A stretch of DNA of 64,000 nt from Alphaproteobacteria bacterium (GTDB lineage Bacteria; Pseudomonadota; Alphaproteobacteria; SHVV01): contig OZ253470.1 in NCBI GenBank assembly GCA_965261735.1, positions 1,553,479-1,617,478 of the forward strand, read 5' to 3'. The notes below the pieces were generated by a model. That model had not been told where the DNA came from and ran no database searches. It was given only the letters and a program-made list of their open reading frames with translations. The number at the start of each line of letters is the position of its first letter. Position 1 is the stretch's first letter. Made by a program: the position numbers and the translations under genes. Below are positions 2,874 to 61,426 of the stretch, in pieces.

Positions 2874-3986
2874 ATGAGCCTCGCCCTGGAGAGCCCGCCC
2901 GCGCCCGATCCGCGCCCCCATCTCGTCGGCCTCGACCGCGAGGAGCTGGCCGCCGAGGTCGTGCGCGCCGGTGCCCGGCCGGCGATCGCTCGCTTACGCG
3001 CGCGCCAGCTGTGGCATTGGCTCTACCATCGTGGCGTGCGCTCGTTCGCCGACATGACGACCCTGCCCAAGGGTCTGCGCACCCGGCTCTCGGAGTCCTG
3101 CACCCTCGAGCGCGCCACGGTATCGCGCGAGCAGGTCTCGGCCGATGGCACCCGCAAGTGGCTGCTGCGCCTCGCCGACGGCCAGGAGGTCGAGAGCGTC
3201 TACATCCCCGAGACGGACCGCGGCGCCCTGTGCCTGTCGACCCAGGTCGGCTGCACGCTGACTTGCAGCTTCTGCCACACCGGTACCCAGCGCCTGGTGC
3301 GCAACCTGGGCGCCGGCGAGATCGTGGCGCAGATACTGCTCGCCCGCGACGCACTCGAAGAGTGGCCGGCGCCGCAGGGCGGGCGCCTGCTGTCCAACAT
3401 CGTGGTCATGGGCATGGGCGAGCCGCTCTACAACTACAACAATTTGGCCAAGGCCCTGAAGATCGCCATGGACGGCGACGGCCTGGCGATCTCGCGCCGC
3501 CGAATCACGCTATCGACGGCGGGCGTGGTGCCCATGATCGAGCGCGCCGGCGCCGAGCTCGCTGTCAACCTCGCGGTCTCGCTGCACGCGGTCAGCGACG
3601 AGCTGCGCAACCAGCTGGTGCCGATCAACCGAAAATACCCGATCGCGGAGCTCATGGCGGCGTGCCACGCCTACCCGGCGGCCTCGAACGCGCGCCGCAT
3701 CACCTTCGAGTACATCCTCCTCAAGGGGGTCAACGACTCGCCGGCCGAGGCACGGGCGCTGGTGCGCCTCATTCGCGGCATCCCGGCCAAGGTCAACCTG
3801 ATCCCGTTCAACCCGTGGCCCGGCGCGCCCTTCGAGACCTCTGACCCGGCTGTCGCGGGCGCCTTCGCCGAGATCATCAATGCGGCCGGCTATGCCGCGC
3901 CGCTACGTACGCCGCGCGGGCGCGACATCATGGCCGCCTGCGGCCAGCTCAAGTCGGCGAGCGTGCGCGCGGCCGGCGCCGGTTGA
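2874..3986 (+). CDS. rlmN: 23S rRNA (adenine2503-C2)-methyltransferase, radical SAM
   Basis: 370 aa; CxxxCxxC radical-SAM motif ([11 protein letters not shown]); full-length RlmN-like. Confidence 0.9.
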
Positions 3987-4495
3987 AGCGCCCGAGCGCA
4001 ACCGCCGAAGTCCTTCCCGACGTCCTGGCGCCCGGCCTCAAGGTGGTGTTCTGCGGCTCGGCGGTCGGTGCTAAATCGGCTGCCCTCGGCGCCTATTACG
4101 CCGGGCCGGGGAACCGGTTCTGGCTCACTCTGCACCGCATCGGGCTAACGCCGAGCGTCCTTGATGCGCACGATTATCGCAGCGTGCGCGACTATGGCAT
4201 CGGCCTCACCGACATGGCCAAGCACGAGTCGGGGTCCGATGCGATCCTATCGCGGGCGGCCGACGATCCCGCGGCGCTCGCGGCCAAGATCGCGCGCTTC
4301 CGGCCCGCCGCACTGGCTTTCAACGGCAAGCGCGCCGCAGGCGTGTTTCTCGGTCAGCCGCTCCTCTACGGCGTGCAGCCCGAGCCGGTGGGCGCGACCG
4401 CACTGTTCGTGCTCCCCTCCACCTCAGGCGCGGCGCGCCGCTTCTGGGACGAGCGGCCCTGGTTCGAGCTTGCCGAATTCGTGCGCCGCGCCTGA
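3983..4495 (+). CDS. mug: G/U mismatch-specific uracil-DNA glycosylase (Mug/TDG, UDG family 2)
   Basis: 170 aa; [10 protein letters not shown]...GPGNRFW signature of the Mug family; non-ATG start overlaps the rlmN stop. Confidence 0.75.
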
Positions 4496-4568
4496 GGTGC
4501 GCGCCTTGCGGGCGGGCGGCGTTGACCTATACTGCGCCGCGCTTTCGACCAGGGCAGAGCCGCACGCG

Positions 4569-5783
<1,215 letters not shown>

Positions 5784-5794
5784 TCCGGCGAAGC

Positions 5795-5960
5795 TCGCGC
5801 TCCCCCCCCTCCCTACCCTCCCCCACAAGGGGGAGGGGGGTGTGCGCGGTGTCGCGTCTCGCCTAGCTCTTCTCTCGTTGGCGGAAGAAGCCCCGCGAGA
5901 TCAAAGCCGTAGCCCCCCTCCACCTTGATGGGGGAGGGATGGGGAGGGGGTGATCCCCGC
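5795..5960. repeat. REP-like GC-rich palindromic elements / possible argG terminator hairpins
   Basis: Two imperfect palindromes (CCCTCCCCCacaaGGGGGAGGG at about 5812-5838, and CCCCCTCCaccttgatGGGGGAGGG at about 5903-5935) in the intergenic space after argG. Confidence 0.5.
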
Positions 5961-10760: not shown

Positions 10761-10910
10761 ACGAGCCCCAACCTCGCCGCGCTCCGGCTGGCGGAATCCC
10801 GTCGGCTGATCTATAAGACCGCGGGGTCGGCCCCGCTCAAATGATCCCGCCCCAACGCCATAACCGGGCTATTCCGGTTGCGTCCTCCGAATCTCGGTGC
10901 CTGCGACCCA

Positions 10911-12734
10911 ATGACCGATACACCCCTCGGCCTTCGCAATATCGCCATCATTGCCCATGTCGATCATGGCAAGACGACCCTCGTGGACCAACTCCTCAGC
11001 CAGTCGGGCACGCTCGGCCGGGGCGCCGCATCGGCGGTACGGGTCATGGACTCGAACGACCTGGAACGAGAACGCGGCATCACGATTCTTTCGAAGAATA
11101 CGGCGGTCCGATGGGGTGACATCTACATCAATATCGTCGATACGCCGGGCCACGCCGACTTCGGCGGAGAAGTCGAGCGCATCCTGTCGATGGTCGATTC
11201 GGTGCTGTTGCTGGTCGATGCGGTCGAAGGGCCAATGCCCCAAACGCGCTTTGTAACGAGCAAGGCGCTTGCCCAAGGGCTTCGCCCCATCGTCGTGATC
11301 AACAAGGTCGACCGTCCCGGCGCGCGGCCGGGATGGGCGTTGGACGAGACCTTCGATCTATTCGACCGGCTCGACGCAAGCGCCGCACAGCTTGATTTTC
11401 CCGTGGTTTATGCCTCGGCGCTGGAAGGCTGGGCGTCTCTGGAACCCGATCGCCGGGGACCCGACATGACCGCTCTCTTTCGAACGATCGCCGATCATGT
11501 GCCGCCGCCCAAGGTTGATCGAAACGGGCCGTTTCAGCTTCAGGTCAGCGCCCTCGCTTACTCGAGTTATGTCGGCGTCATTGGAATCGGACGCGTACAG
11601 CGCGGACGCATCGCGAACAACTCGGCCGTCACGGTGATCGGCGCCAGCGGTGCGACTCGAACCGAGCGCATCCTGCAAATCTTTGGATTTTACGGACTTG
11701 AGCGAATCGAGTGGGACGAAGCTTGCGCGGGGCAGATCGTCGCCTTCACCGGGCTCGACGAATTGCACATTTCCGACACCGTCTGCGCCCCCGATAGGGT
11801 CGAACCCCTTCCTGCCCTCGTGGTCGATGAACCGACCATCACGATGACGTTTCAGGTGAACGACTCGCCGTTCGCCGGCCGAGAGGGTCGTTTCGTCACC
11901 AGCCGTAATTTGGGCGAGCGGCTCGCGCAAGAGCTCATCCACAATGTCGCGCTGCGGGTCGAGCCGACCGCCGACCCAGACAAGTTCAAGGTTTCCGGCC
12001 GGGGCGAGCTGCACCTCGGCATTCTCATCGAGACCATGCGCCGCGAGGGGTACGAGCTCGCGATCTCGCGCCCCGAGGTGATTGTGAAAGAAGTCGACGG
12101 AAAAATTCTGGAACCGTGGCAGACCGTGACTCTCGACATTGAAGACGAGCACCAGGGTGCCGTCATGAGAATGCTGGGCGAGCGCCGCAGCAAGTTGCGC
12201 GACATGCGCTCGGACGGCAGGGGCCGCACGCGACTCGAATATTTGAGCCCGACACGCGGCCTGATCGGATTTCGATCCGAGTTTCTGACGACGACGTCCG
12301 GGACGGGCCTCATGTACCACGCCTTCGATCACTACGGTGCCAGGGTGGAGGCCACTCTCGGTCGCCGCACCAGTGGCGTCCTGGTCTCGATGGCGGGCGG
12401 CAAGGCCCTTGCTTTCGCGCTCTTCAATCTACAGGAGCGGGGGCGCCTTTTCATCTCCCCGGGCGCGGAAGTCTATGAGGGTATGGTGGTGGGCCAGCAT
12501 GCGCGGACCAACGATCTGGTCGTGAACCCGACGAAGGCCAAGCAGTTGACCAATATTCGCGCGGCTGGAAGCGACGAGAATATTTTGCTGACGCCGCCGA
12601 TCCAGACGACCCTCGAATACGCGCTTGAATTCATCAATGACGATGAACTGGTTGAAGTGACACCGAAGTCCATGCGAATTCGGAAGAAACTTCTGAAAGA
12701 GCAGGGGCGCAAGAGGGCACGCTGGGCGGCCTGA
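10911..12734 (+). CDS. typA: translational GTPase TypA/BipA
   Basis: ATG at 10911 ([26 protein letters not shown]...); G1-G4 motifs; full-length, about 607 aa. Confidence 0.95.
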
Positions 12735-14085: not shown

Positions 14086-14125
14086 TCTGAAGCTTTCGTT
14101 CTCCTTCCACTCGAGAACATTCTCC

Positions 14126-15230
14126 CTTTCCTATCCGGTTTACACCCACACCCACTAGGGCTAGAATGGGCGCAACCCGGATATAGGGGAGCGCGCCATG
14201 GATGTTCTCGACCGCGCCGATCTCCCATTCCCGCATTCGCTACCCGAGTTCCAGCGACTTTTCCCCGATGATGCGGCCTGCGCCGCCTACCTGGAGAAAG
14301 CCCGCTGGGGAGACGGCTTTGCCTGCCCGCACTGCGGCACGGCGGGAGAGCCGTTCCACTTTGAAAACCGCCCTGGCGTCCTGCGCTGCCGCAAGTGCCG
14401 CCAGAACACCGGGCTGACGGTGGGAACAGTGATGGAGCGTAGCCACACTCCGCTGAACGTCTGGTTCTGGGCCGCTTATCTGGTCGCCAGTCAGACGCCC
14501 GGCATGTCCGCCGTGCAGTTTCAGCGGCAACTTGGTCTTTCGCGCTACGAGACGGCCTTTCAAATTCTCCACAAGCTCCGCTCGGGCATGGTGCGGCCCA
14601 ACCAAGACAGGATCGGTGGACAGCCCAAGAACCATGTTGAGGTGGACGAAACCTGGGTTGGCGGGCGAACGCGTGGGGAAGGCCGTGGTGTTCACCACAA
14701 GGTTCCCGTCTCCTGTGCCATCGAGGTGCGTCATCGAAAGCCGGGCACCAAGCTCGACAACCGGAAAGACGGACGCTATGCCGGACGCGTTCGGCTCGCC
14801 GTCGTGCTCGACCGTAGCGCCGAGTCGCTCTGTGGGTTCGTCGAGAGCACCGTCGCGCCGCGATCGCTGATCGTTACTGACGATTGGAGCGGCTATGCTG
14901 GCCTCGGTAAGCGCGGCTATGAGCACTTCGCTGTTGCCGAGTGTGGTGATCCAGAGGTTGCCGAGCAATACCTGCCGATCATCCATCTGGTTTTCGCCAA
15001 CCTGAAGACGTGGCTGATCGATATCCACCACGGCGTTAGCCACCAGCACCTACAAGCCTACCTCAACGAGTTCACCTTCCGCTTCAACAGGCGGTTCTAC
15101 CCGTTCAACGCCTTCCGCTCATTGCTCGGCATCGCGGGCGACACCTCTGCTCCAACCTATGCCGAGCTTTACTCGGGAGAGTGGCGGCACCCTACATGTA
15201 GCGGTCATGGGCGTTAACCGGATAGGCAAG
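14126..15230 (+). mobile_element. IS1595-family insertion sequence, copy 1 (1105 bp)
   Basis: Imperfect 22-bp terminal IRs (CTTtCCTATCCGGTTTACACCC ... GGGCGTTAACCGGATAGGCAAG); identical termini on all copies; no clean TSD at this copy. Confidence 0.85.
14198..15217 (+). CDS. IS1595-family transposase (N-terminal zinc ribbon plus DDE domain)
   Basis: 339 aa; CPHCG...CRKCRQ zinc ribbon followed by a DDE_Tnp_IS1595-like core. Confidence 0.85.
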   Translation: MDVLDRADLPFPHSLPEFQRLFPDDAACAAYLEKARWGDGFACPHCGTAGEPFHFENRPGVLRCRKCRQNTGLTVGTVMERSHTPLNVWFWAAYLVASQTPGMSAVQFQRQLGLSRYETAFQILHKLRSGMVRPNQDRIGGQPKNHVEVDETWVGGRTRGEGRGVHHKVPVSCAIEVRHRKPGTKLDNRKDGRYAGRVRLAVVLDRSAESLCGFVESTVAPRSLIVTDDWSGYAGLGKRGYEHFAVAECGDPEVAEQYLPIIHLVFANLKTWLIDIHHGVSHQHLQAYLNEFTFRFNRRFYPFNAFRSLLGIAGDTSAPTYAELYSGEWRHPTCSGHGR

Positions 15231-21356: not shown

Positions 21357-22461
21357 CTTGCCTATCCGGTTAACGCCCATGACCGCTACATGTAGGGTGC
21401 CGCCACTCTCCCGAGTAAAGCTCGGCATAGGTTGGAGCAGAGGTGTCGCCCGCGATGCCGAGCAATGAGCGGAAGGCGTTGAACGGGTAGAACCGCCTGT
21501 TGAAGCGGAAGGTGAACTCGTTGAGGTAGGCTTGTAGGTGCTGGTGGCTAACGCCGTGGTGGATACCGATCAGCCACGTCTTCAGGTTGGCGAAAACCAG
21601 ATGGATGATCGGCAGGTATTGCTCGGCAACCTCTGGATCACCACACTCGGCAACAGCGAAGTGCTCATAGCCGCGCTTACCGAGGCCAGCATAGCCGCTC
21701 CAATCGTCAGTAACGATCAGCGATCGCGGCGCGACGGTGCTCTCGACGAACCCACAGAGCGACTCGGCGCTACGGTCGAGCACGACGGCGAGCCGAACGC
21801 GTCCGGCATAGCGTCCGTCTTTCCGGTTGTCGAGCTTGGTGCCCGGCTTTCGATGACGCACCTCGATGGCACAGGAGACGGGAACCTTGTGGTGAACACC
21901 ACGGCCTTCCCCACGCGTTCGCCCGCCAACCCAGGTTTCGTCCACCTCAACATGGTTCTTGGGCTGTCCACCGATCCTGTCTTGGTTGGGCCGCACCATG
22001 CCCGAGCGGAGCTTGTGGAGAATTTGAAAGGCCGTCTCGTAGCGCGAAAGACCAAGTTGCCGCTGAAACTGCACGGCGGACATGCCGGGCGTCTGACTGG
22101 CGACCAGATAAGCGGCCCAGAACCAGACGTTCAGCGGAGTGTGGCTACGCTCCATCACTGTTCCCACCGTCAGCCCGGTGTTCTGGCGGCACTTGCGGCA
22201 GCGCAGGACGCCAGGGCGGTTTTCAAAGTGGAACGGCTCTCCCGCCGTGCCGCAGTGCGGGCAGGCAAAGCCGTCTCCCCAGCGGGCTTTCTCCAGGTAG
22301 GCGGCGCAGGCCGCATCATCGGGGAAAAGTCGCTGGAACTCGGGTAGCGAATGCGGGAATGGGAGATCGGCGCGGTCGAGAACATCCATGGCGCGCTCCC
22401 CTATATCCGGGTTGCGCCCATTCTAGCCCTAGTGGGTGTGGGTGTAAACCGGATAGGCAAG
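21357..22461 (-). mobile_element. IS1595-family IS, copy 2 (1105 bp) with an 8-bp TSD
   Basis: Perfect 8-bp direct repeat GATCAGTC at 21349-21356 and 22462-22469 flanking the identical termini. Confidence 0.9.
21370..22389 (-). CDS. IS1595-family transposase
   Basis: 339 aa, nearly identical to copy 1. Confidence 0.85.
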   Translation of the reverse strand: MDVLDRADLPFPHSLPEFQRLFPDDAACAAYLEKARWGDGFACPHCGTAGEPFHFENRPGVLRCRKCRQNTGLTVGTVMERSHTPLNVWFWAAYLVASQTPGMSAVQFQRQLGLSRYETAFQILHKLRSGMVRPNQDRIGGQPKNHVEVDETWVGGRTRGEGRGVHHKVPVSCAIEVRHRKPGTKLDNRKDGRYAGRVRLAVVLDRSAESLCGFVESTVAPRSLIVTDDWSGYAGLGKRGYEHFAVAECGDPEVAEQYLPIIHLVFANLKTWLIGIHHGVSHQHLQAYLNEFTFRFNRRFYPFNAFRSLLGIAGDTSAPTYAELYSGEWRHPTCSGHGR

Positions 22462-23046
22462 GATCAGTCATTCAAGGCTAAGTTGCTGGGCACGGACCGG
22501 CTGCGGGAGATGGCAAATCCAGGGCAGCTCGGACGCTCGTATGGTGACCACTTCGCCGCTGGATACCCGAAGAGCAGCTTCGAGCACCTGCGCCAGGCGG
22601 GCGGGGAAGGATCGGGCGTCGATACCTTTCTGTTGCTTGAAGACAGACTGGACCTCCGCATCCGCGTTGAAGCGACGCTGAGCCCTCTCTTCGACCGCGA
22701 CGTAGTGCTGGACTGGGATTCCGGTAGCCTCGTGCCGAAGGCGGCGATGCGGAAAAGTGGAGAGTCTTATCGCCTAGATCGTGACGAGTGTCACGGCATT
22801 AAGGAGCTCTTGGTTCTTCTCACGCACTTGTACGATGAGCGGCACGACTACCTGATCGTCGATGAGCCGGAACTCAATTTGCATCCGCAGTATCAAACGT
22901 TCTTCATGCAGGAGGTGCGCAAGGTTACCCAAAAGCAGGATGCGAGCGGAACCGCGAAAATCGTCTTCCTGATCACGCACTCGCCGTTCATACTGGTTTT
23001 GCGGTCGCACGATGACGTCAAGTCCGTGATATCGTTCGATCTCTAA
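22462..23046 (+). pseudogene. C-terminal half of an ABC/AAA_21-type ATPase (OLD / PARIS AriA-like); N-terminus with Walker A missing
   Basis: Walker B LIVDEPELNLHP, Q/H-loop-like FLITHSP; begins exactly at the IS copy 2 TSD. Confidence 0.55.
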
Positions 23047-24522: not shown

Positions 24523-24807
24523 ATGTTCACCGTAGTCACCCCCACGACGAGTCTTAGCCTCGACGATCATTTCATAAAGCGTCCTGCGGCGACATTCTTT
24601 GTCACGGTCGAGGGCGGCGGCATGGCCGAACACGGGATCCTTGCCGGCGATACCCTGATCGTCGACCGTTCACGTACGCCAGGCACGGGTTCCATCGTCA
24701 TCGCGGTAATCGTGGGCGAGTTGACCACCCGTCCGTTCGCCGCCCTCGATGGCGAGGAGGCCCACGTCTGGGGCGTCGTCGCCGGGGTGGTGCGGAGCCT
24801 GCCATGA
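24523..24807 (+). CDS. umuD: UmuD-like (S24 LexA-fold) protein lacking the N-terminal arm and the Ser/Lys catalytic dyad
   Basis: 94 aa; aligns to the UmuD C-domain but has GGGM in place of GDSM and no Lys at the K97-equivalent position; 4-bp overlap with umuC. Confidence 0.7.
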   Translation: MFTVVTPTTSLSLDDHFIKRPAATFFVTVEGGGMAEHGILAGDTLIVDRSRTPGTGSIVIAVIVGELTTRPFAALDGEEAHVWGVVAGVVRSLP

Positions 24808-26022
24808 GCATCTACGGACTGGCCGATTGCAATAACTTCTTCGTCTCCTGCGAGCGGGTCTTCCGGCCAGCCCTCGAAGGCCGTCCCGCCGTGGTCCTGT
24901 CGTCGAACGACGGCTGCATCGTCGCGCGCAGCGACGAGGCGAAGGCGCTCGGCGTCAAGATGGCGCAGCCGGCGTTCCAGGCGAAAGACCTCATCGAGAG
25001 GCATAGCATTGCCGTCATCAGCGGCAACCTCCAGTTCTATACCGACATGAGCAACCGGGTGATGCAGGTCTTCGGGGAACTGGTCCCGGCGGTCTCGCGG
25101 GAATACCGCAAGAGCTCACGGCATTCTGCCAGGACCTGAAACGCACCGTGCGGCAATGGACCGGGCTGCCGATCAGCATCGGCATCGCCGAGACCAAGAC
25201 CCTTGCCAAGATCGCCAACCGCCTCGCGAAGACCTCCGCCAAAACGGACGGCGTTCTCGATCTCACCGGAACGCGCTGGCGCGACAAGGCGCTGGCGTCA
25301 ACGGAAGTCGGCGATGTCTGGGGCATCGGCAGGCAGTACGCCAAGAAACTCAACCGCAACGGTGTCATGACGGCCCTCGATCTGACGAGCCGTCCCGATG
25401 GCTGGGTGCGCAGGGCGTCGGCGGGCTGAAGACGGTGCGGGAATTGCGCGGCGAAGACTGTATAGGCTTCGACGACATGCCCCAGCCCAAGCAAACGACG
25501 ATGGTTTCGCGATCCTTCGGCACGGAAGTGCGCGACTACGACGAGTTGACCAATGCGATCGCCATGTTCGCGACCGATGCGGCACGATCGATCCGCAGGG
25601 CCAATCTCGTCTCAACCTCGGTGAGCGTGTTCATCGAGACCAACCGTTTCGGCAAGAGCCCGCACCACGCTCCCTCCTGCTCGGAAGCACTGTCGCCCGC
25701 GACCAATAACACGAAGCATGTCGTGCGAGCCGCGCTGGCCGCTCTGAAGCACATCTACCGCGAGGGGCTGGCGTACAAACGCGCCGGGGTGATGCTGCTC
25801 GACCTCGTAGAAGCCGGCCGGGCGCCAATCTCGCTATTCGATACGCAGGATCCAAGGGACGACAAGCTGATCGAAGCGTTCGACGCCATCAACGACCGGC
25901 TGGGGCCGGGAGCGATCCAATTCGGCCCCGCGGCGCAGGCCGCGGCCTGGCGATCGAGCAGCGCGTTCCGCTCGCCCAACTACACAACCCGTTGGGAAGA
26001 CATCCCGAAGGTTAAAACCTGA
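24804..26022 (+). pseudogene. umuC: Y-family DNA polymerase V subunit UmuC, disrupted by about 2 frameshifts/deletion
   Basis: N-terminus MSIYGLADCNNFFVSCERVF in frame 0 to 25139, continues in another frame (25148-25429) and a third (to 26022); about 14 codons (EIYSIDEAFLDL region) deleted near 25095. Confidence 0.8.
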
Positions 26023-26123
26023 GCCTCGGCAGACCCGGGCGTCGATCCGGGCAGCGGTCCACAAGCAGAAAGTTACACTACGGGCGCACTGCCTCCGCCA
26101 GAACCTGGCGCGCCGGCGAGAGA

Positions 26124-26796
26124 ATGAGGCCGGGGCCTTTCGGGCGGCGGGAACGAGGGCGAGAGAACGGCTCTCGCCGCCCCGCCGGGAGCCCTCGATT
26201 GACCCATTCGAAGACGGCGGCGATCGGGACGGCGATCGCGGTAATCGCGGCGCTGTTTCTCGCCGGTTACATGACCGGCGATCATGGGGTGAAGCGGATG
26301 GACGGCGCGCGGGCTCGGCGACATCGCCGGGGGGGGGGGGCCCAGGTCCACAGCCGGAAGCGGCAAGCACGGGATCGCGGCCATGGTAGCTGGAACCATG
26401 GCGGGGCTGTTTCCCGGTAGCGGGATCGGCGCCTCGCTCGACAAGCTGTGTGCGGCCCGCACACGGCAAGCGGCGCTGGAGACCGGTCCAAGCGTGGTGC
26501 CCTTGCGCTGGCGCAATCGCAACACCGATAACGCAGGGGCGATTACACCGACCCGCACCTACAGATCGGCCGCCGGAATCTACTGCAGGGAATACCAACT
26601 CACCGCGACCGCCGGCGGGCGCACCGGGCAAGCCCACGGCAGCGGCTGCCGCCAGCCCGACGGCTCGTGGCGAGTATCGAACCAGCACCGCGCCTGCCCA
26701 TGGCGACCTGCCCGGCGCTGGAACGGCGGCGATCGATTCAACTGTCCTTGCACGGTCCAGCCGTTCCGGCTCCATCCGGTTCCGTTACGCCGGTGA
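26124..26796 (+). CDS. putative membrane / glycine-zipper surface-antigen-like protein split across a G12 tract
   Basis: TM helix (AAIGTAIAVIAALFLAGY) in frame 0; glycine-zipper and YCREY...GSGC...DGSW surface-antigen-like region in frame +1 after the poly-G tract. Confidence 0.35.
26329..26340 (+). repeat. homopolymeric G12 tract
   Basis: 12 consecutive G at the frame junction of the putative surface-antigen-like gene. Confidence 0.9.
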
Positions 26797-26887
26797 GAGC
26801 CAGAGCTTGAGCCGAAGGCGGGCGAGGGCGGATGCCGAAGAGGGTGTCCCCGCCCGGTTCCGCATTCACGCAATCCCGGAGACCGAC

Positions 26888-28334
26888 ATGCACGACCCCG
26901 AACGCGATATCCGCGACATCCCGCTGTCCCAACTCGAACTCTCGCCCGGCAATGTGCGCAAGACGCCGGCCGATGCTTCAGCCTTCACCGAGCTCAAGGC
27001 CTCGATCGCTGCCCACGGGTTGCTCGAGAACCTGATTGCCCGCGCCATGGAACCCGGCACCGATTATGTCGTGCGCTACGCGGTGATCGCCGGCGGACGG
27101 CGGCTTGCCGTGATGCAGGCGCTGGCCGCCGAAGGCGCGCTGGACGAGGACCACCCCGTGCCCTGCCGCATGATCGGAAGCATCGTGGCGGCCGAAGAAG
27201 TTTCGCTGGCCGAGAACAGTGTCCGCGCCGCCATGCACACGGCCGATCAGGTCGAGGCATTCCGCCGCCTGGCCGATGCGGGCAGCACGGCGGGCGCCAT
27301 CGCGGCGCGTTTCGGGGTCTCGGAGCGCACCGTGGAGAAGCGCCTGCGGCTCGGCAACGCCGCACCAGTGCTGCTCGAGGCCTACCGAGCAGGCGAAATC
27401 GATCTGGACACATTGATGGCCTTCGCCGTCACCACGGATCATGCGCGCCAGAACGCGGTCTGGGCGGCGGTGAGCCAACAGGGCTACCGTCCCGGCGCCT
27501 GGCAGATCAAGCGCCTGCTGACCGAGGACCGGGTTCCGGCCACGTCCGCCATCGCGCGTTTCGTCGGCATCGAGGCTTACGAGGCGGCGGGCGGCAGGAT
27601 CGATCGCGATCTGTTCGCCGAGGAGGACGAGCGGGGGATCTGGTTCGACGATCCCGAACTCTTGAACAAGCTCGCCATGGACAGCCTCCAGGTCGCGGCG
27701 AGGGAACTGGAGACGCGCTGGAAATGGGCCGAGGCGCGGCTCGACGTGGACTGGAGCGCCACCGCGAGCTTCGGGCGGGTGCGTCCGCAACCGGCCGAGC
27801 CGACAGACGGGGAGAAGGCCGAGATCGAACGTTTGAGGACCCGCAACGACGAACTCGCCAACATGGACGACGACGGCTGGACCGAAGAATTGGTCGAGGA
27901 AGCCGATGCCAACGAGACGCGCCTGGACGAGATCGAGGCCGCGATCGACGCCCGCGCGGTCTACCGGCGCGAGGACATCGCTATCGCCGGGTGCATCGCC
28001 ACCGTCGGCAACGACGGCGAGCTCAAGCTGATCCAGGGCCTGGTCAGGCCCGAGGACATGCCCGCGCGCGAACCCAACGATGCGAACATGGCCGGACAAG
28101 ACGATACCGGCGACGGGGAGAGCGCCAGTTCCAGCATCGAGGCTCCCACACTTGCGGCTCCCCCCGCTTCGCCCGGCGAAGGACAAGTTCGCCGGTATCG
28201 AGCCGGACGCCTTGCGCCCGTCGGGGCGCTTCGATCCCAACCTCCGCAGGCAGGTCAAGCGCGACGCCGATGCGCTCACGGCGCAATTCGCGGGCTACTT
28301 CGCGCCCGCCGCCGCGGACAGGGAAGCAGCCTGA
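26888..28334 (+). pseudogene. ParB/Srx-like nuclease domain protein (ICE/plasmid type), frameshifted at a C6 tract
   Basis: ParB N-domain (IPLSQLELSPGNVRK, VIAGGRRLAV) plus HTH; the frame changes at CCCCCC (28168-28173); the C-terminus continues in the frame ending at 28334. Confidence 0.7.
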
Positions 28335-29686
28335 TGGCCGCCCATGCCCGCTCGGAATCCGCCCGGCGCGTCAGCGACTGCATGACCACGCTGCTGCGCG
28401 ACCAGCCCTTCTTCGGCAGCCTGGCGTTAAGGCTGCCGATCCGCCCCGACGAAACCCGCGAGACCCTGGCCAGCGATGGCAAGGACATCCGCTACGCGCC
28501 CCAGTGGGTGGCGGACACCGATGCCGATCAGATCAAGACCGCGCTGGCGCGCGTGGTCCTGGCCTGCGCGTTGAAGCATCATACGCGGCGGGGCAGCCGC
28601 GACCCGGAGCGCTGGCAACGGGCCTCGCAGTTGGTCACCCACGGCCTGCTGCGGGACGCAGGTTTTGCACTGCCGCCCGGCGCAGAGGCCTGGGACGCCA
28701 TCAGCGCCGAACAGGCCTACGACCGGCTTCCGGAACCGCCGGACGATGCAGAGAATCCGGGCGATGCGTCTTCATCCAGCGATGTGGATGACAGTGGCAG
28801 CGCTGCCGGCCCTCGATGCGGTGACGGCGACGAAGACCAAAGCGCTCCGCCAAATCCAACCGATGACAACAGTCCGCAAGAGCAGGACGCGCCGGGATCG
28901 GGCAGCAATAGCGCGGGCTCGAAACCATCCGGGCAGACGCCCGCCAGCCACGACCCTTGCGGCACCGGCGAGGTCATGGACGCGGACGAGCGTTGCGACG
29001 CCACCGGCCAGTCCGGCGAATCGCCTCTGGACACACCCGCCGAGGAGCAGGCGTGGGACGAAGCCATGCACCAGGCCGCCAATCTCGCGCGGGCGCAAGG
29101 CAACGCGCCTGGCGCCGTCGAGGAGACGATCCGGCAAGCGCATCGCAGCATCCTCGACTGGCGGTCGCTGTTGCGCCGCTACATGACCGATGCCGCGCGC
29201 CGCGATGATAGCTGGAGCGTCCCCAACCGGCGTTTCATCGACAGCGGCCTCTATCTGCCCTCGATGCACTCGGAGGGCATCGATGCCATCGCCATCATCA
29301 TCGACACCTCCGGATCGCTGCCGGGCGAAACGCTGGCCCTGTTCTGGGCCGAGGTCCGCGAAATCACCGCCGAACTGCAGCCGGACAGCATCTATGTCCT
29401 TCAGGTCGACGCGGTGCTGCAGGACGCAGCCCGGTATCCCGCCGGGGAACTACCGGACAGCATCACGATCAAGGGACGCGGCGGGACCGATTTCCGGCCA
29501 GGCTTCGCATGGCTTCATGAGCATGGGGTGCGCCCAAGCTGCTGCCTCTACCTGACCGACATGGAATGCGACAGCTACCCCGAGGCCGAGCCTGGCTATC
29601 CTGTAATTTATTGCAACTGGGGGCCGCCGCCGGGGACAAGGAACCGCGAGCCCTGGGGCGAGCGCATCGACATCGGACCGGCATGA
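28334..29686 (+). CDS. DUF2201-family protein (putative metallopeptidase-like N-domain plus VWA-like C-domain)
   Basis: 450 aa; the ATG overlaps the ParB-like stop (TGATG); VWA-like IIIDTSGS motif in the C-terminal domain. Confidence 0.65.
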   Translation: MAAHARSESARRVSDCMTTLLRDQPFFGSLALRLPIRPDETRETLASDGKDIRYAPQWVADTDADQIKTALARVVLACALKHHTRRGSRDPERWQRASQLVTHGLLRDAGFALPPGAEAWDAISAEQAYDRLPEPPDDAENPGDASSSSDVDDSGSAAGPRCGDGDEDQSAPPNPTDDNSPQEQDAPGSGSNSAGSKPSGQTPASHDPCGTGEVMDADERCDATGQSGESPLDTPAEEQAWDEAMHQAANLARAQGNAPGAVEETIRQAHRSILDWRSLLRRYMTDAARRDDSWSVPNRRFIDSGLYLPSMHSEGIDAIAIIIDTSGSLPGETLALFWAEVREITAELQPDSIYVLQVDAVLQDAARYPAGELPDSITIKGRGGTDFRPGFAWLHEHGVRPSCCLYLTDMECDSYPEAEPGYPVIYCNWGPPPGTRNREPWGERIDIGPA

Positions 29687-30318: not shown

Positions 30319-33300
30319 ATGCTCGACGCCCAACCGGCGGCGACCGCGCCCGCGCGTCCGCCTGCCATCCAGCAGCTTCAACCATCCCCAGCGATTGCCG
30401 ATACCACAGGCGTTCGCTCCAAGCCTGCCGCGTTGCTGGCCGCGGCAACCGCTCTGCTTCTTGAGCTGGAGGTGGGCCGGGCGCTCGATCCAAAGACCTT
30501 GCGCGAAGCCATGAGCGCGGCCTTCGGCGCCAATGACACGCAAGGAGCCTGGGTCTGGAAGGACGCCTACGAAGCGGCCGAAGCCGCGATGGTGCTGTTC
30601 ATCCAGCGCTACGGCCGCCTCATGCGCCGCGAGGCGGGCGCCGGACCCGGATCGGCCGCCGCCATGCTCGCCATGCTGGAGACCCTGGCGGCGCTGGAGC
30701 CGTCCCAGACACGGCGGTCGGAGGAACAGCTTGCCCTGCAACAGTTCTCCACTCCCTTGCCGCTCGCCTACGCCGCGCTGCAGGCCGCCGCCATCCGGCC
30801 CGGCGACATCGTGCTGGAACCCTCGGCCGGCACCGGCATGCTCGCCGTCATGGCCGAATGCGCCCTCGGCAAGCGCACCGATGACGCGCGATCGGGGGAT
30901 CCCCTGCACCTGAACGAGATTGCCGCCGTTCGCGCCGGGTTGCTTGCGCGATTGTTCCCAGATTCGCCGGTCACCCGTCATAACGCCGAGTCCATCGCCG
31001 ATTATCTGCCGGACCTGCGTCCCACCGTGGTGTTGATGAACCCGCCCTTTTCGGCGAGCCCCGGGGTCCAGCGCATCCGCCATGACGCGGATTTGCGCCA
31101 TCTTCATTCCGCCTTCTCCATGCTCCCGGCGGGCGGGCGGCTGGTGGCCATCACGTCGGCCGGCTGCATCCCGGGCGATACCGCCTGGAGCCGCGCCTTC
31201 GAGCGCCTCGATCCACCGCCGCGCACCGTCTTTTCCAACGCCATCGACGGGCGCGCCTACGCACGGCGCGGCACGACCTTCGATACCCGGCTGACCGTAA
31301 TCGACCGTGATCCCGCCAATGCCCAGGGCGTTCCGGTCGACGCGCGGGAATCCGTCCCCACCGCTGCCGGGTTGCTTGCAGCTATCGCCGCCAATGTGCC
31401 GCAGCGGCAGGCGGTCGTGCCAATAGCCGCGGCCCTTGTTCCGGCCGGCGATCTGTTCGGCCATGCCGCTGCACGGCCGGCCCCGCGTAAGTGGGCAGCG
31501 GCCACCGCGCCCAACACCAGATCCGCAGACCCGCAAGTCCGCGATTGGGGGCCGGTGGCCGAACTCGACTACGAAATTTCACCCGCCAACCCTGAAGGCA
31601 AGGTAAGCGAACCGGAGGCCACCCATGCCGGCGTCTACGAGCCCTGGTGTCCCCGGACCGCGCGCATTCCCGGCGCCTGCGAACATCCGACGCCGCTGGT
31701 GCAATCCGCCGCCATGGCGGCGGTGCCCCATCCCGTGCCGTCGTACCGCCCGATGCTGCCCGTGCATGTCGTGACGGACGAACTGCTGTCCGACGCCCAG
31801 CTCGAAAGCGTCATCCTCGCCGGTCAGGCGCATGAGCGCCATCTTTCCGCGCACTACCGCATCGGCGAGGGGTGGGAGACCGTCGCGCGTGTCGCCGACA
31901 ATGAAGATGACAACAGCGATGACGGCAAAAACGACGAGACAATTCACTCTGATCCCGAACCCGCCACCGATGCTACCGGCGATGGCGAAGCCCTGTCCGC
32001 GCCGGTGCGTTTCCGGCGCGGCTGGATGCTGGGCGACGGCACCGGCTGCGGCAAGGGCCGCCAGGTCGCCGCCATCATTCTCGACCACTGGCTGCGCGGC
32101 CGCCGCCGGGCGCTGTGGCTGTCCGCCTCCGACAAGCTGCTGGAAGACGCGCTCCGCGACTGGGCCGCGGTCGGCGGCAGCGAGGCCGACCTCATCCCAT
32201 TGGGTAAGTTCCGCCAGGGGGCCGAAATTCCACAAGAGGCCGGTATCCTGTTCGCCACCTATGCAACCTTGCGCTCGCCCGCCCGCCAGGGAAAGCGCTC
32301 GCGCCTCGAACAGATCGTGCGCTGGCTCGCCGATGGCATGGACGAAGACTCCCGCCATGCCTTTGGCGGCGGGACCGCGCGGCGATACCGCCCCCTCGCA
32401 GCAGGGGCGCGCCGGATTGCGTTTGCAGAACGCCTTGCCGGATGCCCGCATCCTCTATGTCTCCGCCACCGGTGCCACCACGGTGCCCGGACTTGCCTAT
32501 GCGCGGCGCCTCGGCCTGTGGAGCGGCGCGGATTCGGGCGGCGAGACGCCCTTCAAGCAACGCACCGATTTCGTCACCGCCATGGAGGCCGGCGGGGTCG
32601 CGGCGATGGAGGTGGTGGCCCGCGATCTGAAGGCCCTCGGGCTCTACCAGGCCCGTGCGCTCAGCTATGACGGGGTCGAGGTCGAGCTGCTCGAACATCC
32701 GCTGACGCCCGAGCAGCGGCGCATCTACGACGCCTATGCCGGGGCCTTCAAGGTGATCCACCGCAATATAGAAGACGCCCTGAAAGCCACCGGCATCATG
32801 GAAGGCGATGCCACCCTGAACAAGAACGCCAAGTCCGCCGCGCTGTCGGCTTTCGAGGGCGCGAAGCAGCGTTTCTTCGGCCATCTCCTGACCGCAATGA
32901 AATGTCCCTCGCTGATCCGGTTCGTGGAGGCCGATCTCGAGGCAGGTCATGCCTGCGTCATCCAGCTGGTCTCCACCGGCGAGGCTTTGCTGGACCGGCG
33001 CATCGCCGATATCCCCGTCTCGGAATGGGACGATATCTCCGTCGACCTGACGCCGAGGGAGGCGTGCCTTGAATATCTGGCGCACGCATTCCCTGTGCAG
33101 TTGCAGGAGCCATTCACCGACGACGAGGGCAATCTCATGAGCCGGCCCGTGACCGACGCCGAGGGCAACCCGGTCTTGTGCCAGGAAGCAGTCGCTGCCC
33201 GCGACTCTCTGATCGAGAAGCTCGCGGCGTTGCCGCCGGTGCAGGCGGCGCTCGACCAGATCCTGCACCGTTTCGGCGGCAAGGCCGTCGCCGAGGTCAC

Positions 33301-34855
33301 CGGCCGCTCGCGCAGGGTCCTGCGCATCGCCGATGCGTCAAGCGAGCGCCTGGCGCTGCGCAACCGTCCTGCGTCGGCCAACCTCGCCGAGACCGCCGCC
33401 TTCATGGCGGGCGACAAACGCATCCTCGTCTTCTCCATGGCCGGCGGCACCGGGCGCAGCTATCACGCCGACCTTGGCTGCGGCAACACTGCGCGGCGTA
33501 TCCATTACCTGCTGGAGCCGGGCTGGCGGGCCGACCAGGCGATCCAGGGACTGGGCCGCACCCATCGAACGCACCAGGCCTCGGCCCCCTTGTTCCGCCC
33601 CGTCACCACGGATGTGAAGGGCGAGCGGCGGTTCATTGCCACCATCGCGCGGCGTCTCGACAGCCTGGGCGCCATCACCCGGGGACAGCGGGACAGCCAG
33701 ACGGCCATGGGCGGCGGCGATGCCACCCTGTTCCGGGCCAGCGACAATCTGGAGAGCCCCTACGCCAAGGTGGCGCTGCGTCAGTTCTACATCGCGCTGT
33801 GGCGCGGCAACATTGCGGGCTGGTCCATGGACCGTTTCGAGGACGCCACCGGGCTGAAGTTGATCTGGGAAGGCTCGCTCAAGGAAGACCTGCCGCCGAT
33901 GCCCCGGTTCCTCAACCGGCTGCTGGCCCTGCCCATCGCCGAGCAGAACGAGTTGTTCGCCGAGCTGGAAACCCGCATCGAGGCCAACATCGAACAGGCC
34001 ATCGAGGCCGGGACCCACGAGCAGGGTGTCGAGACCATCCGGGCCGACTCCCTCACCGTGGCCTCGCGCGAGACGGTTCACGTTCATGAAGCCTCGGGCG
34101 CCGCCACCGAGCTTGTCGAGATCGTCCGCCGCGACCGGCTCGTGCCGCTGGCGGCCGACGATGCGCTCGCCATGCGGGACGGGCGTCCCGTCGTCAACAC
34201 CCGCTCGAAGCGCGCCGCCGTGGTCCTGCCCGCGCCGTCGCGGATGTTCGAGGACGGCGGGGTCGAGGCCCGGGTCCGCCTGGTCCGTCCCGCCGCCCGC
34301 GAGCCCATGGCCGCGGCCGAGCTTGCCGCCTCGAACTGGGAGGATTCCGGCGAAGATCGCTGGCGCGTGTTGTGGGATGCGGAAATCGAGGGGCTGCCCA
34401 GCCACACCGAATCCCGCCTGTGGCTGGTCACCGGCCTGCTGCTGCCCATCTGGGACCGATTGCCGGGCGAGAACATGCGGGTGCGCCGGCTTGCGACCGA
34501 TGCCGGGGAAAGCCTGCTCGGCCGGGTTCTGACGCCCGAGCAGGCGCACGCCTTCCGCGACGCCTTCGGACTGGCCGGCGGACCGGTCATGAGCCCGGCC
34601 GAGATGCACGAGGCGATTCTGATCCGCGGCGCGTCCTTCGATCTCGCCAACGGCTGGCGGCTTGCAAGGCGGCGCCTGATGGGCGCCGGCCGCGTCGAGA
34701 TCGAAGGACCGGCCGATAACGACCTCGCGGCGCTCAAGCGCATGGGGTGCGCCACCGAGATCGTCTCGTGGCGCACCCGTGTGTTCGTGCCCCAATACAT
34801 CGACCTCGGCCGCATCCTCGATCGCTGGCCGCTCGCGGATGCGAACCCGGCGTAA
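30319..34855 (+). pseudogene. large N6-adenine DNA methyltransferase / SNF2 (strawberry-notch-like) helicase fusion, frameshifted in helicase motif II
   Basis: MTase motif I (LEPSAGTGMLAV) and IV (NPPF); helicase Walker A GDGTGCGKGRQVA; frame switch near 32335-32375, where DEAH...APSQQGRAGLRLQ is split between frames; helicase C-domain and conserved C-terminal tail present. Confidence 0.75.
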
Positions 34856-53640: not shown

Positions 53641-53663
53641 TTCCTATCTCGCTCTACTTCTTC

Positions 53664-54768
53664 CTTACCTATCCGGTTTACACCCACACCCACTAGGGCT
53701 AGGATGGGCGCAACCCGGATATAGGGGAGCGCGCCATGGATGTTCTCGACCGCGCCGGTCTCCCATTCCCGCATTCGCTACCCGAGTTCCAGCGACTTTT
53801 CCCCGATGATGCGGCCTGCGCCGCCTACCTGGAGAAAGCCCGCTGGGGAGACGGCTTTGCCTGCCCGCACTGCGGCACGGCGGGAGAGCCGTTCCACTTT
53901 GAAAACCGCCCTGGCGTCCTGCGCTGCCGCAAGTGCCGCCAGAACACCGGGCTGACGGTGGGAACAGTGATGGAGCGTAGCCACACTCCGCTGAACGTCT
54001 GGTTCTGGGCCGCTTATCTGGTCGCCAGTCAGACGCCCGGCATGTCCGCCGTGCAGTTTCAGCGGCAACTTGGTCTTTCGCGCTACGAGACGGCCTTTCA
54101 AATTCTCCACAAGCTCCGCTCGGGCATGGTGCGGCCCAACCAAGACAGGATCGGTGGACAGCCCAAGAACCATGTTGAGGTGGACGAAACCTGGGTTGGC
54201 GGGCGAACGCGTGGGGAAGGCCGTGGTGTTCACCACAAGGTTCCCGTCTCCTGTGCCATCGAGGTGCGTCATCGAAAGCCGGGCACCAAGCTCGACAACC
54301 GGAAAGACGGACGCTATGCCGGACGCGTTCGGCTCGCCGTCGTGCTCGACCGTAGCGCCGAGTCGCTCTGTGGGTTCGTCGAGAGCACCGTCGCGCCGCG
54401 ATCGCTGATCGTTACTGACGATTGGAGCGGCTATGCTGGCCTCGGGAAGCGCGGCTATGAGCACTTCGCTGTTGCCGAGTGTGGTGATCCAGAGGTTGCC
54501 GAGCAATACCTGCCGATCATCCATCTGGTTTTCGCCAACCTGAAGACGTGGCTGATCGGTATCCACCACGGCGTTAGCCACCAGCACCTACAAGCCTACC
54601 TCAACGAGTTCACCTTCCGCTTCAACAGGCGGTTCTACCCGTTCAACGCCTTCCGCTCATTGCTCGGCATCGCGGGCGACACCTCTGCTCCAACCTATGC
54701 CGAGCTTTACTCGGGAGAGTGGCGGCACCCTACATGTAGCGGTCATGGGCGTTAACCGGATAGGCAAG
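53664..54768 (+). mobile_element. IS1595-family IS, copy 3 (1105 bp)
   Basis: Same termini as the other copies; flanks ACTTCTTC / GTTTCTTC (6/8), consistent with a degraded 8-bp TSD. Confidence 0.85.
53736..54755 (+). CDS. IS1595-family transposase
   Basis: 339 aa, nearly identical to copies 1 and 2. Confidence 0.85.
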   Translation: MDVLDRAGLPFPHSLPEFQRLFPDDAACAAYLEKARWGDGFACPHCGTAGEPFHFENRPGVLRCRKCRQNTGLTVGTVMERSHTPLNVWFWAAYLVASQTPGMSAVQFQRQLGLSRYETAFQILHKLRSGMVRPNQDRIGGQPKNHVEVDETWVGGRTRGEGRGVHHKVPVSCAIEVRHRKPGTKLDNRKDGRYAGRVRLAVVLDRSAESLCGFVESTVAPRSLIVTDDWSGYAGLGKRGYEHFAVAECGDPEVAEQYLPIIHLVFANLKTWLIGIHHGVSHQHLQAYLNEFTFRFNRRFYPFNAFRSLLGIAGDTSAPTYAELYSGEWRHPTCSGHGR

Positions 54769-56292: not shown

Positions 56293-56673
56293 TCACAAGC
56301 TGGAATAGTTGCGGAGCCTAGCGCGGATTTCTACCTGGGGCAGCCGGCAGCGAGGATGTTCGGCGATTCGCCGGAGGCCCTCGGTCAAGGCGTCCTGGTC
56401 AAGCATCCGATTCCCATGCAGGTGATCGACCAGCCATAGGACGCCGTGGCATTCGACGTTTTCTTCGAGTGCCAGGGCGCGCAGCGAGCCGTCTCCGGAA
56501 AGCAGCGTCCACGAACGTGTCTTGGAGAGGGCGAGCGCGAAGCTGTCGGGAAGCGAAAGACTGCGCCGCGCGCGGCGGTACGCCAGCGCGAGGGTGACTC
56601 CTGCGCCATCCAGTTCTTCCAAGCGGAGCCCCAGGTCGATTAGTGTGGGCCCACCGTGATCCCTGAGTTCGCG
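56293..56673 (-). pseudogene. PIN-domain (VapC-like) gene fragment, N-terminally truncated by the IS1595 fragment
   Basis: ...ALALSKTRSWTLLSGDGSLRALALEENVECHGVLWLVDHL resembles PIN-domain C-terminal strands; the upstream part is replaced by the IS end. Confidence 0.35.
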
Positions 56674-56892
56674 CTTGCCTATCCGGTTAACGCCCATGAC
56701 CGCTACATGTAGGGTGCCGCCACTCTCCCGAGTAAAGCTCGGCATAGGTTGGAGCAGAGGTGTCGCCCGCGATGCCGAGCAATGAGCGGAAGGCGTTGAA
56801 CGGGTAGAACCGCCTGTTGAAGCGGAAGGTGAACTCGTTGAGGTAGGCTTGTAGGTGCTGGTGGCTAACGTCGTGGTGGATACCGATCAGCC
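56674..56892 (-). mobile_element. IS1595-family IS fragment (right-end 219 bp only)
   Basis: Identical to the right end of the full copies, encoding the last 68 aa of the transposase; identity breaks at about 56892. Confidence 0.85.
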
Positions 56893-59897: not shown

Positions 59898-60396
59898 CTC
59901 GGGGATAGCGGCGAGTGGAGCGCCGGGAAGAGCGGCCGGCGGGGTGCGCCGCCCACAGTCATCATCCGGGAGTTTGCCGGCGCGGCAAACTCCTCCTTGT
60001 CCCCGATCATAGTCAACCCGTCGAAGCGATGGCAAATTTGACGCAGTCGCCGACCGGGGATGAGGAATGGGCTGTCCAGAGAGCCGGTTACATGACACTC
60101 GAATCCATTGCTCCGGTGAGCGACATTGACTCCATAGAGCTGCCCGCAGTGGGAGACTGAGCGTCCGAGCCCAGACCGCCGGAAACCTTGTAGAGTGCAA
60201 CGCTCCCACACCACTCCCGGGGACACGATCCCGTCGTATGGCGAGACAAAGTCAGCGGACACTAGAAATCTACAGCCAGCATAGGGAACTTCGAAGAATA
60301 TTGCCGGTGACCTGTCCTCTTCATCGCCCTCTCGCCCAAGAATCCAATCAATCCAGGCAACCACACTCGGCGTACCCATAAGGGCGAAGTTGGAAC

Positions 60397-61426
60397 CTTG
60401 CCTATCCGGTTTACACCCACACCCACTAGGGCTAGAATGGGCGCAACCCGGATATAGGGGAGCGCGCCATGGATGTTCTCGACCGCGCCGATCTCCCATT
60501 CCCGCATTCGCTACCCGAGTTCCAGCGACTTTTCCCCGATGATGCGGCCTGCGCCGCCTACCTGGAGAAAGCCCGCTGGGGAGACGGCTTTGCCTGCCCG
60601 CACTGCGGCACGGCGGGAGAGCCGTTCCACTTTGAAAACCGCCCTGGCGTCCTGCGCTGCCGCAAGTGCCGCCAGAACACCGGGCTGACGGTGGGAACAG
60701 TGATGGAGCGTAGCCACACTCCGCTGAACGTCTGGTTCTGGGCCGCTTATCTGGTCGCCAGTCAGACGCCCGGCATGTCCGCCGTGCAGTTTCAGCGGCA
60801 ACTTGGTCTTTCGCGCTACGAGACGGCCTTTCAAATTCTCCACAAGCTCCGCTCGGGCATGGTGCGGCCCAACCAAGACAGGATCGGTGGACAGCCCAAG
60901 AACCATGTTGAGGTGGACGAAACCTGGGTTGGCGGGCGAACGCGTGGGGAAGGCCGTGGTGTTCACCACAAGGTTCCCGTCTCCTGTGCCATCGACGTCG
61001 TGCTCGACCGTAGCGCCGAGTCGCTCTGTGGGTTCGTCGAGAGCACCGTCGCGCCAGGATCGCTGATCGTTACTGACGATTGGAGCGGCTATGCTGGCCT
61101 CGGTAAGCGCGGCTATGAGCACTTCGCTGTTGCCGAGTGTGGTGATCCAGAGGTTGCCGAGCAATACCTGCCGATCATCCATCTGGTTTTCGCCAACCTG
61201 AAGACGTGGCTGATCGGTATCCACCACGGCGTTAGCCACCAGCACCTACAAGCCTACCTCAACGAGTTCACCTTCCGCTTCAACAGGCGGTTCTACCCGT
61301 TCAACGCCTTCCGCTCATTGCTCGGCATCGCGGGCGACACCTCTGCTCCAACCTATGCCGAGCTTTACTCGGGAGAGTGGCGGCACCCTACATGTAGCGG
61401 TCATGGGCGTTAACCGGATAGGCAAG
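60397..61426 (+). mobile_element. IS1595-family IS, copy 4 (1030 bp, 75-bp internal deletion) with an 8-bp TSD
   Basis: Perfect direct repeat GTTGGAAC at 60389-60396 and 61427-61434. Confidence 0.9.
60469..61413 (+). CDS. IS1595-family transposase with an in-frame 25-aa deletion
   Basis: 314 aa; lacks EVRHRKPGTKLDNRKDGRYAGRVRLAV relative to the other copies. Confidence 0.8.
   Translation: MDVLDRADLPFPHSLPEFQRLFPDDAACAAYLEKARWGDGFACPHCGTAGEPFHFENRPGVLRCRKCRQNTGLTVGTVMERSHTPLNVWFWAAYLVASQTPGMSAVQFQRQLGLSRYETAFQILHKLRSGMVRPNQDRIGGQPKNHVEVDETWVGGRTRGEGRGVHHKVPVSCAIDVVLDRSAESLCGFVESTVAPGSLIVTDDWSGYAGLGKRGYEHFAVAECGDPEVAEQYLPIIHLVFANLKTWLIGIHHGVSHQHLQAYLNEFTFRFNRRFYPFNAFRSLLGIAGDTSAPTYAELYSGEWRHPTCSGHGR

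Follow-up and report, generated by a model that had tools for sequence, protein, structure and literature searches.

Intragenic G or C tracts are known from the contingency loci of Campylobacter jejuni, Neisseria and Haemophilus, in which a run near the 5′ end of a surface-protein gene is polymorphic in length among close relatives, a change of ±1 toggles the frame and the remainder of the ORF is kept by selection (PMC3401435, PMC4965091, PMC11868660). In C. jejuni the modal length of polyG tracts is 9 (PMC3401435), and 29 loci of a single strain bear tracts of at least 7 (PMC4965091). Runs longer than 10 occur at more than one per 100 kb in only 1% of 1,598 bacterial genera (PMC9262707). A second described situation is the long poly(A) run that shifts the frame of genes in decaying genomes, such as those of Buchnera and Blochmannia (PMC3017870, PMC5009743). 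Transcriptional slippage, provoked by runs of 9 or more (review PMC5009743), has been discussed for the homopolymer-disrupted Blochmannia genes (PMC3017870). The third relevant system is the RT0821/Lpp0805 family of lipoproteins (PF16998, usually with PF05433), whose members are relatives of the Rickettsia 17-kDa lipoprotein antigen and have an uninterrupted ORF of about 150–170 aa with a lipobox cysteine.

An earlier reading made from the letters alone (the sequence-only reading) had reported a run of 12 G in the window, that is, the whole 64-kb stretch of DNA analysed here, and had proposed that it is a phase-variation switch in a gene for a surface protein. The run was present at exactly that length and position (26329–26340), in the context CATCGCC-G12-CCCAGG. 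It was an outlier. The next-longest G run in the window was 6, and the only other run of at least 8 was a C8 at 5802–5809. About 0.04 G runs of 12 or more were expected in the window under an order-0 model, and order-2 Markov simulation, repeated 100 times for the window, gave a longest G or C run of 6–10 and never one of 12. Across 179 kb of related loci, G or C runs of at least 8 were confined to the site homologous to G12, the sole other homopolymer of that length being one T8. The C8 of the window is situated within a C-rich/G-rich inverted repeat, CCCTCCCCC-ACAA-GGGGGAGGG (5795–5842), just past the stop of the ORF at 4161–5783; the repeat looks like an intergenic hairpin.

Two ORFs cover the tract region. 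The first (26124–26420, frame 0) has a product that includes THSKTAAIGTAIAVIAALFLAGY, and the second (26383–26796) is in frame +1 relative to it and encodes 137 aa. The open stretch of the +1 frame starts as early as 26293 and crosses G12 as four glycine codons (ARGLGDIAGGGGPRSTAGSGK). The frames were said to meet at the tract; the split is real, but since the +1 frame is open from 26293 and reads through, they overlap across the tract rather than meet there. Loss of one G or gain of two, as proposed, yields one continuous ORF of 223/224 aa. The features of the locus are as follows.

26187–26191, + strand: Shine-Dalgarno-like GGGAG, 7 nt 5′ of the probable original start; a putative element read from the sequence
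26199–26270, + strand: signal-peptide coding part, from alignment with homologues carrying LFLAGC or LFRAGC
26293–26796, + strand: downstream (+1) frame, which corresponds to the ancestral frame by translation, Pfam and BLASTP
26307–26313, + strand: second slippery site, from the DNA alignment of 15 copies
26329–26340, + strand: G12 homopolymer, hypervariable, from the Gly-Gly-Val codons (GGA GGC GTG) of a glycine-zipper segment
26383–26385, + strand: ATG opening the 137-aa ORF, a lineage-specific ACG-to-ATG change (Thr to Met) in the old zipper and not a conserved start

The start codon at 26199 is TTG in the window and ATG in homologues (MTHSK/MTYSK). The ATG at 26124 is a mechanical ORF start only, a 5′ extension of the signal-peptide part. 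The hydrophobic segment that the sequence-only reading had called a transmembrane helix was found, and we identify it as a lipoprotein-type signal peptide instead, because the best-preserved homologues have such a signal peptide with an L-A-G-C lipobox. In the window the lipobox reads L-A-G-Y (LFLAGY), with TAC (Tyr) at 26268–26270 where most copies have TGC (Cys). At the site of the second ATG (26383), 11 of 13 other copies have GCCACGGT, L015 has GCTACGGT and L013 has GCCTCGGT; GCCATGGT occurred only in the window and in L024. The downstream frame holds a zipper remnant, GLGDIAGGGGPRSTAGSGKHGIAAMVAGTMAGLFPGSGIGASLD, and a 42-aa tail after WRVSN. Both conserved cysteines of the domain are kept without an intervening stop (YCREY at 26581–26595; GCRQ at 26644–26655, with GCRQPDGSW starting at 26644).

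A 313-aa ORF on the opposite strand (25834–26775, −) spans the locus and was considered as an antisense gene. It was rejected, having no Pfam match, and is probably an artefact of GC-rich sequence; indels among copies that are not multiples of three speak against coding on either strand. A scan of 25900–27000 gave no sigma-70-like promoter and just two weak terminator-like hairpins. No Rfam match at gathering scores was obtained at the locus, and no tRNA was found in the window, so that an RNA element, an att site or a regulatory site here found no support.

The likeness of the downstream product to the 17-kDa surface antigen was confirmed by a match to PF16998 (17kDa_Anti_2; 31.1–31.8 bits against a gathering score of 26.6, E about 1e-7, and 1.4e-7 at 31.8 bits), covering residues 34–100 of the 137-aa ORF (26482–26682) and model positions 49–112 of 116. 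By BLASTP, the downstream frame was 47% identical over 116 aa (E = 6e-34) to P0043, a typical member of the family. The glycine zipper ascribed to the same frame was recovered by position only: the segment is homologous to the zipper of P0043, which itself matches PF05433 at 4.9e-8, and neither the fused, the reconstructed nor the clade-consensus protein matched PF05433, PF13441 or PF13488 at E ≤ 0.1. The fused protein had no NCBIfam match. With the fused sequence as query, 209 matches were obtained from the protein collection. Distant matches were typical proteins of 155–170 aa with PF13441 or PF05433 followed by PF16998, and the sources of the close ones (65–90% identity) were metagenome assemblies in ENA and MAGs with the title ‘Alphaproteobacteria bacterium’. 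The best-preserved close homologues begin MT(H/Y)SKTAAIRTAIAVIAALFLAGC, a lipoprotein signal peptide with the canonical L-A-G-C lipobox, and continue with a glycine-rich zipper, GDHGVKRMAGAGLGG(I/V)AGGV(H/L)GSTAGSGK..., ahead of the 17-kDa domain. A search of plasmid DNA returned only distant matches of 58–91 nt to Azospirillum RT0821/Lpp0805 genes, which served to name the family. A pattern scan of JGI metagenomes with the tract flanks gave 0 matches, and exact look-ups of the 137-aa and 98-aa window ORF products in the contig index gave none.

By domain homology, then, the gene can be assigned to the PF16998 / RT0821-Lpp0805 family. It sits between umuDC and parB, and its ancestral product would have had a glycine zipper between a lipoprotein signal peptide and the PF16998 domain. 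Judged from its sequence, the window copy appears to fail three features of a functional member, namely the intact ORF (here split between frame 0 and frame +1), the lipobox cysteine, absent in the alignment with homologues, and a recognisable zipper.

Where the frame was broken became apparent from a DNA alignment of 15 distinct copies, with frame states taken from the translations and the alignment. Two copies, L027 and L028, keep the ancestral in-frame zipper GAG(V/L)GG(V/I)AGGV. They read GCGGGGCTC at the site corresponding to 26307–26313, where the window reads GCGCGGGCTC, and have a 9-nt tract, GGGGG(T/C)GTG. Distant copies have GGAGGCGTG at the tract position, which encodes Gly-Gly-Val. 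All other copies, including the window, have an additional base at about 26310 (GCG[C/G/A]GGGCTC; GCGGGGGCTC) or, in L016 and L026, two (GCGCAGAGGGCTC), except L008, in which an 8-nt deletion spans the site. Because the 12 nt of the window equal the ancestral 9 plus 3, the downstream frame crosses the tract unbroken. The true frame break relative to the ancestral gene is the +1 near 26310, the tract being a place of possible compensation. The break site coincides with a second short G run (G4/G5 in GCGGGGCTC) 20 nt 5′ of the tract, which varies by +1 or +2 among copies. Because this run varies, the segment between the two sites is read in all three frames in database homologues (EGSATSPGG is one form).

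The alignment also shows what removal of one G would produce. The product lacks a restored zipper and is a ‘compensated’ form of the kind seen in P0001/L001, L009, P0008, P0009 and P0014: because of the +1 indel near 26310, half of the zipper is replaced by an Arg-rich out-of-frame stretch. The sequence-only reading had counted a lack of fused homologues, in combination with a uniform tract length in deep reads, as evidence against itself. Fused homologues exist, so this objection falls away; P0001/L001 and L009 read ...GARARRHR(R/Q)G(G)VPRSTAGSGK... through.

Tract length was compared at homologous loci, as the sequence-only reading had suggested. Alleles were scored between CATCGCC and CC(C)AGGTCC and come from different copies and assemblies, not from one population. 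Among copies with 90–99% identical flanks, G5, G6, G7, G8, G11, G12 and G14 were observed, a range that marks the tract as a slippage hot-spot. The alleles were distributed as follows.

L012, L013 and L018: GGAGGCGTG
L015 and L028: GGGGGCGTG
L027: GGGGGTGTG
L009 and L016: G6TG
L023: G7TG
L001–L007: AG8TG, identical in seven contigs from six samples
L024: G11TG, in a copy 98–99% identical to the window over 4 kb
Window: G12
L025: AG14
L026: G14TG

Each of the long alleles (G11, G12 and G14) was represented by one contig. The tract was born from glycine codons, and the series suggests that synonymous changes led up to G7, with slippage thereafter; slippage is presumably the mutational process. 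Among the eight alleles with a tract of at least G6, 4/8 were in frame, no significant departure from a chance level of 1/3 (p = 0.26). In four alleles (L009, L001, L025 and L026) the tract length exactly compensates the upstream indel. These four lengths might be a trace of earlier selection to keep the frame open, or of frequent switching between ON and OFF.

The gene body was then compared across 17 distinct copies by searching an idealised intact protein against every locus with tblastn. Only L009 was fully open from start to stop (1/17). The other 16 carried disabling lesions, among them stops, frameshifts, IS insertions and deletions, many of which lie away from the tract. The lesions recorded, including those of two database proteins, are listed below.

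L001–L007: signal peptide lost at a junction flanked by IS genes (rve_3, Mutator-family transposase)
L008: two in-frame stops, and LAGY
L010: one stop
L011, L016 and L026: a common TAG after Y(C/R)RE
L012, L013 and L018: several stops and shifts
L014: without the N-terminal half
L015: +1 at the site near 26310 only
L023: cut by an IS66 fragment
L024 (P0026): deletion that brings 26577 next to 29307
L025: second Cys codon replaced by TGA
L027: TAG after CREY
L028: frameshifts within the domain
P0025: fused to an IS110 transposase

In L024 (positions 3887–4567; ENA ERZ25071132, ctg813403_13x_l) the deletion measures 2.7 kb against the window (26577/29307). Through this deletion the lipoprotein relic, past ...YRSAAG, continues in frame with the C-terminal part of the DUF2201/VWA gene, and the chimeric protein is P0026.

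Ratios of dN/dS were calculated by the Nei-Gojobori method for the window against ten copies and rest on small counts (15–36 substitutions per pairwise comparison).

17-kDa domain: 0.38–1.10, and 0.8–1.1 against the closest copies
Signal-peptide part: 0.6–1.3, with a low outlier of 0.21 (L008, 5 substitutions)
parB: 0.21–0.32
umuC C-terminus: 0.08–0.24

Fisher tests on the nonsynonymous and synonymous counts gave p = 0.0005–0.02 against umuC and p = 0.03–0.08 against parB. A dN/dS near 1 could also be caused by diversifying selection on a surface antigen. Taken together, the lesions, the dN/dS and the in-frame fraction lead us to conclude that the gene is evolving without detectable constraint in the clade. 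Such a pattern is what a pseudogene family leaves, whereas a contingency gene would have a preserved body.

The neighbourhood showed similar damage. The window is chromosomal, with TypA/BipA at 10878–12734. The gene lies on an island ordered OLD-like ATPase, umuD, umuC, lipoprotein gene, parB-like gene, DUF2201, Strawberry-notch-like helicase, RecD2-like helicase and DEAD helicase. MAG genomes hold 3–4 copies of the island each, and its host clade is uncultured Alphaproteobacteria. A Mutator-family transposase is present in the window, as is an IS1595-family element (339-aa transposase) in four complete copies and a partial one, at 99–100% identity. The coordinates of these copies and of the genes next to the tract are given here.

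14125–15230: IS1595-family copy
21357–22462: IS1595-family copy, inverted
53658–54768: IS1595-family copy
60396–61426: IS1595-family copy
56673–56892: IS1595-family partial copy
24804–26022, + strand: umuC (Y-family polymerase) pseudogene, with ORFs in three frames
26888–29686, + strand: ParB-like gene, 932 aa, running in frame into the DUF2201_N metallopeptidase-like and VWA-like (DUF2201) gene
30319–34855: Strawberry-notch-like helicase (AAA_34 and Helicase_C_4), split into two overlapping ORFs

Compared with L024, L026 and L009, umuC lacks 34 bp at about 25092 and 7 bp at about 25412, and neither deletion is at a homopolymer. The frame break of the Strawberry-notch-like helicase (about 32344–32378) has no homopolymer either. 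Assembly noise as the cause of all frameshifts in the window was ruled out by the two umuC deletions and this break. As DNA, parB of the window is homologous to that of other copies up to 28179, a position that may well mark the edge of a deletion or rearrangement. Because the neighbours are broken without homopolymers, the lipoprotein gene is but one of the genes damaged as this island copy decays.

Further observations were made in the related contigs. Similarity between the window and L024 begins exactly at the end of the second IS1595-family copy (22460). In L026, umuC is intact (419 aa) with umuD 5′ of it. L024 5197–6759, corresponding to the window from about 30300 onward, encodes a SAVED-domain protein (520 aa) with an OLD-like ATPase nearby, which hints that the island carries anti-phage defence cargo.

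From these results we consider it probable that G12 is a hypermutable mononucleotide tract in a lipoprotein-gene relic on a multi-copy, IS-rich, ICE-like island, with indels that are neutral and no maintained switch. Synonymous changes in the zipper glycine codons (GGA GGC GTG to GGG GGC GTG to GGG GGG GTG) would first have made a G7. Once past the slippage threshold, the run would lengthen and shorten by replication slippage, giving G6 to G14 across copies, and the nearby G4/G5 run at about 26310 would slip as well. Selective constraint would already have been lost in the clade, so that indels, stops, IS insertions and deletions could pile up neutrally; we infer that the variation is neutral rather than selected. 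The window copy is predicted to be inactive: the extra base at about 26310 (+1) and the three in the tract (+3) leave it with a net shift of +1, and Tyr has taken the place of the cysteine needed for lipidation.

A functional contingency locus, in which slipped-strand mispairing of the G tract toggles the island-borne lipoprotein ON (G11 or G14) and OFF (G12 or G13) and the window shows the OFF state, appears unlikely to us. Several traits are those expected of such a locus: G12 is a simple-sequence repeat above the slippage threshold inside the relic ORF, its length is within the range of proven polyG switches, it lies directly past the signal peptide of a surface-protein gene, close copies differ in its length, some homologues are fused in frame (P0001, P0002 and L009), and the 17-kDa domain of the window is uninterrupted. 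What such a locus should also have, a gene body that is intact and constrained, was not found (lesions in 16/17 copies, dN/dS 0.4–1.1, lipobox cysteine lost in the window). The sequence-only claim of a maintained switch for a functional surface protein was therefore not supported by the comparison. It is weakened because the ancestral frame crosses the tract and the break is the +1 near 26310, and again because the lipobox cysteine is Tyr, a single copy of the 17 is open, dN/dS is relaxed where the flanking genes are constrained, and neighbouring genes are broken too. The ON product would carry half of its zipper as an Arg-rich out-of-frame stretch, the in-frame fraction is that expected by chance, and the closest relative, L024 (G11TG), is out of frame as well and has its C-terminal half deleted. 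Neutral slippage is the likelier explanation because the gene is decaying and is carried by a mobile island present in several copies. If the contingency reading were true, no such locus would have been described before on an ICE-like element of Alphaproteobacteria.

It is just as doubtful that the frameshift is a consensus error, with a true tract of G11 (or G14) that would make the window copy a continuous ORF of the compensated P0001/L009 type. The names of the related contigs end in a coverage tag and ‘l’ (for example ctg814200_10x_l; tags 2x–14x), a style which we take to be that of long-read metagenome assemblers. A single-base change would restore the frame, and G11, G12 and G14 each come from one contig only. 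Homopolymers of 10 or more are still problematic in long-read consensus (PMC9262707). However, the G8 allele was exactly reproduced in seven contigs from six samples, and tract differences of 2–8 nt between copies are too large for consensus noise. Other lesions of the window (the 34-bp and 7-bp umuC deletions, the split Strawberry-notch-like helicase, Cys to Tyr) are not of the homopolymer type, and even with G11 the lipobox loss and the clade-wide decay would remain.

Rescue at the level of RNA or translation is very improbable. RNA-polymerase slippage or ribosomal frameshifting on G12 would give some in-frame product, as proposed for poly(A) in insect endosymbionts, and the host genome does appear rich in IS elements and pseudogenes. 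Nevertheless, no particular tract length or frame is conserved across copies, the gene is not constrained, and the locus showed no stimulatory signals (no Rfam match, only the weak terminator-like hairpins). We give hardly any credence to a frame-switch cassette on the mobile island, in which the two slippery G runs (about 26310 and 26329–26340) would shift the 20–30 nt between them into any of three frames and so swap linkers between the signal peptide and the 17-kDa domain, all three linkers being present in in-frame database homologues; if true, it would be a combined ON/OFF and sequence-variation device in a horizontally transferred surface protein of uncultured, perhaps host-associated, Alphaproteobacteria.

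As a biological switch the tract is probably unimportant, because the gene looks dead here and in nearly all related copies. Read as neutral slippage, the locus is a clean natural case of a mononucleotide microsatellite born from adjacent glycine codons that ran away from G5 to G14 once constraint was lifted, and it illustrates that slippage of a tract can by chance offset a nearby frameshift. Two cautions follow for similar loci. A long homopolymer in a surface-protein gene is insufficient proof of phase variation, and the gene body should be checked across copies. Exact tract lengths are uncertain in long-read metagenome assemblies, and calling phase variation from a single assembly is risky.

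Compared with the described systems, the locus resembles the polyG/polyC contingency loci of Campylobacter, Neisseria and Haemophilus in having an intragenic G run of similar length near the 5′ end of a surface-protein gene, polymorphic among close relatives and toggling the frame by ±1. Unlike those loci, whose ORF remainder is under selection, it is littered with lesions and appears to evolve neutrally, and its length variation is that between copies and assemblies; its host is a GC-rich alphaproteobacterium, and the tract is the only long one in 64 kb plus 179 kb of related DNA. With the homopolymer-disrupted genes of Buchnera and Blochmannia it shares a long-homopolymer frameshift amid pseudogenes and IS elements, although here the tract is of G and the genome is GC-rich and large (contigs of 2–4 Mb). 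To the RT0821/Lpp0805 family it is tied by the PF16998 domain, by the CREY...CRQPDGSW motif and by the layout of signal peptide, Gly-rich segment and domain, which is that of the clade's ancestral form. In contrast to described members of that family, the window gene has an interrupted ORF, Tyr in place of the lipobox cysteine, a 42-aa C-terminal tail, no match to a Pfam zipper model (even for the clade consensus) or to NCBIfam, and a position between umuDC and parB on a mobile island with 3–4 copies per genome.
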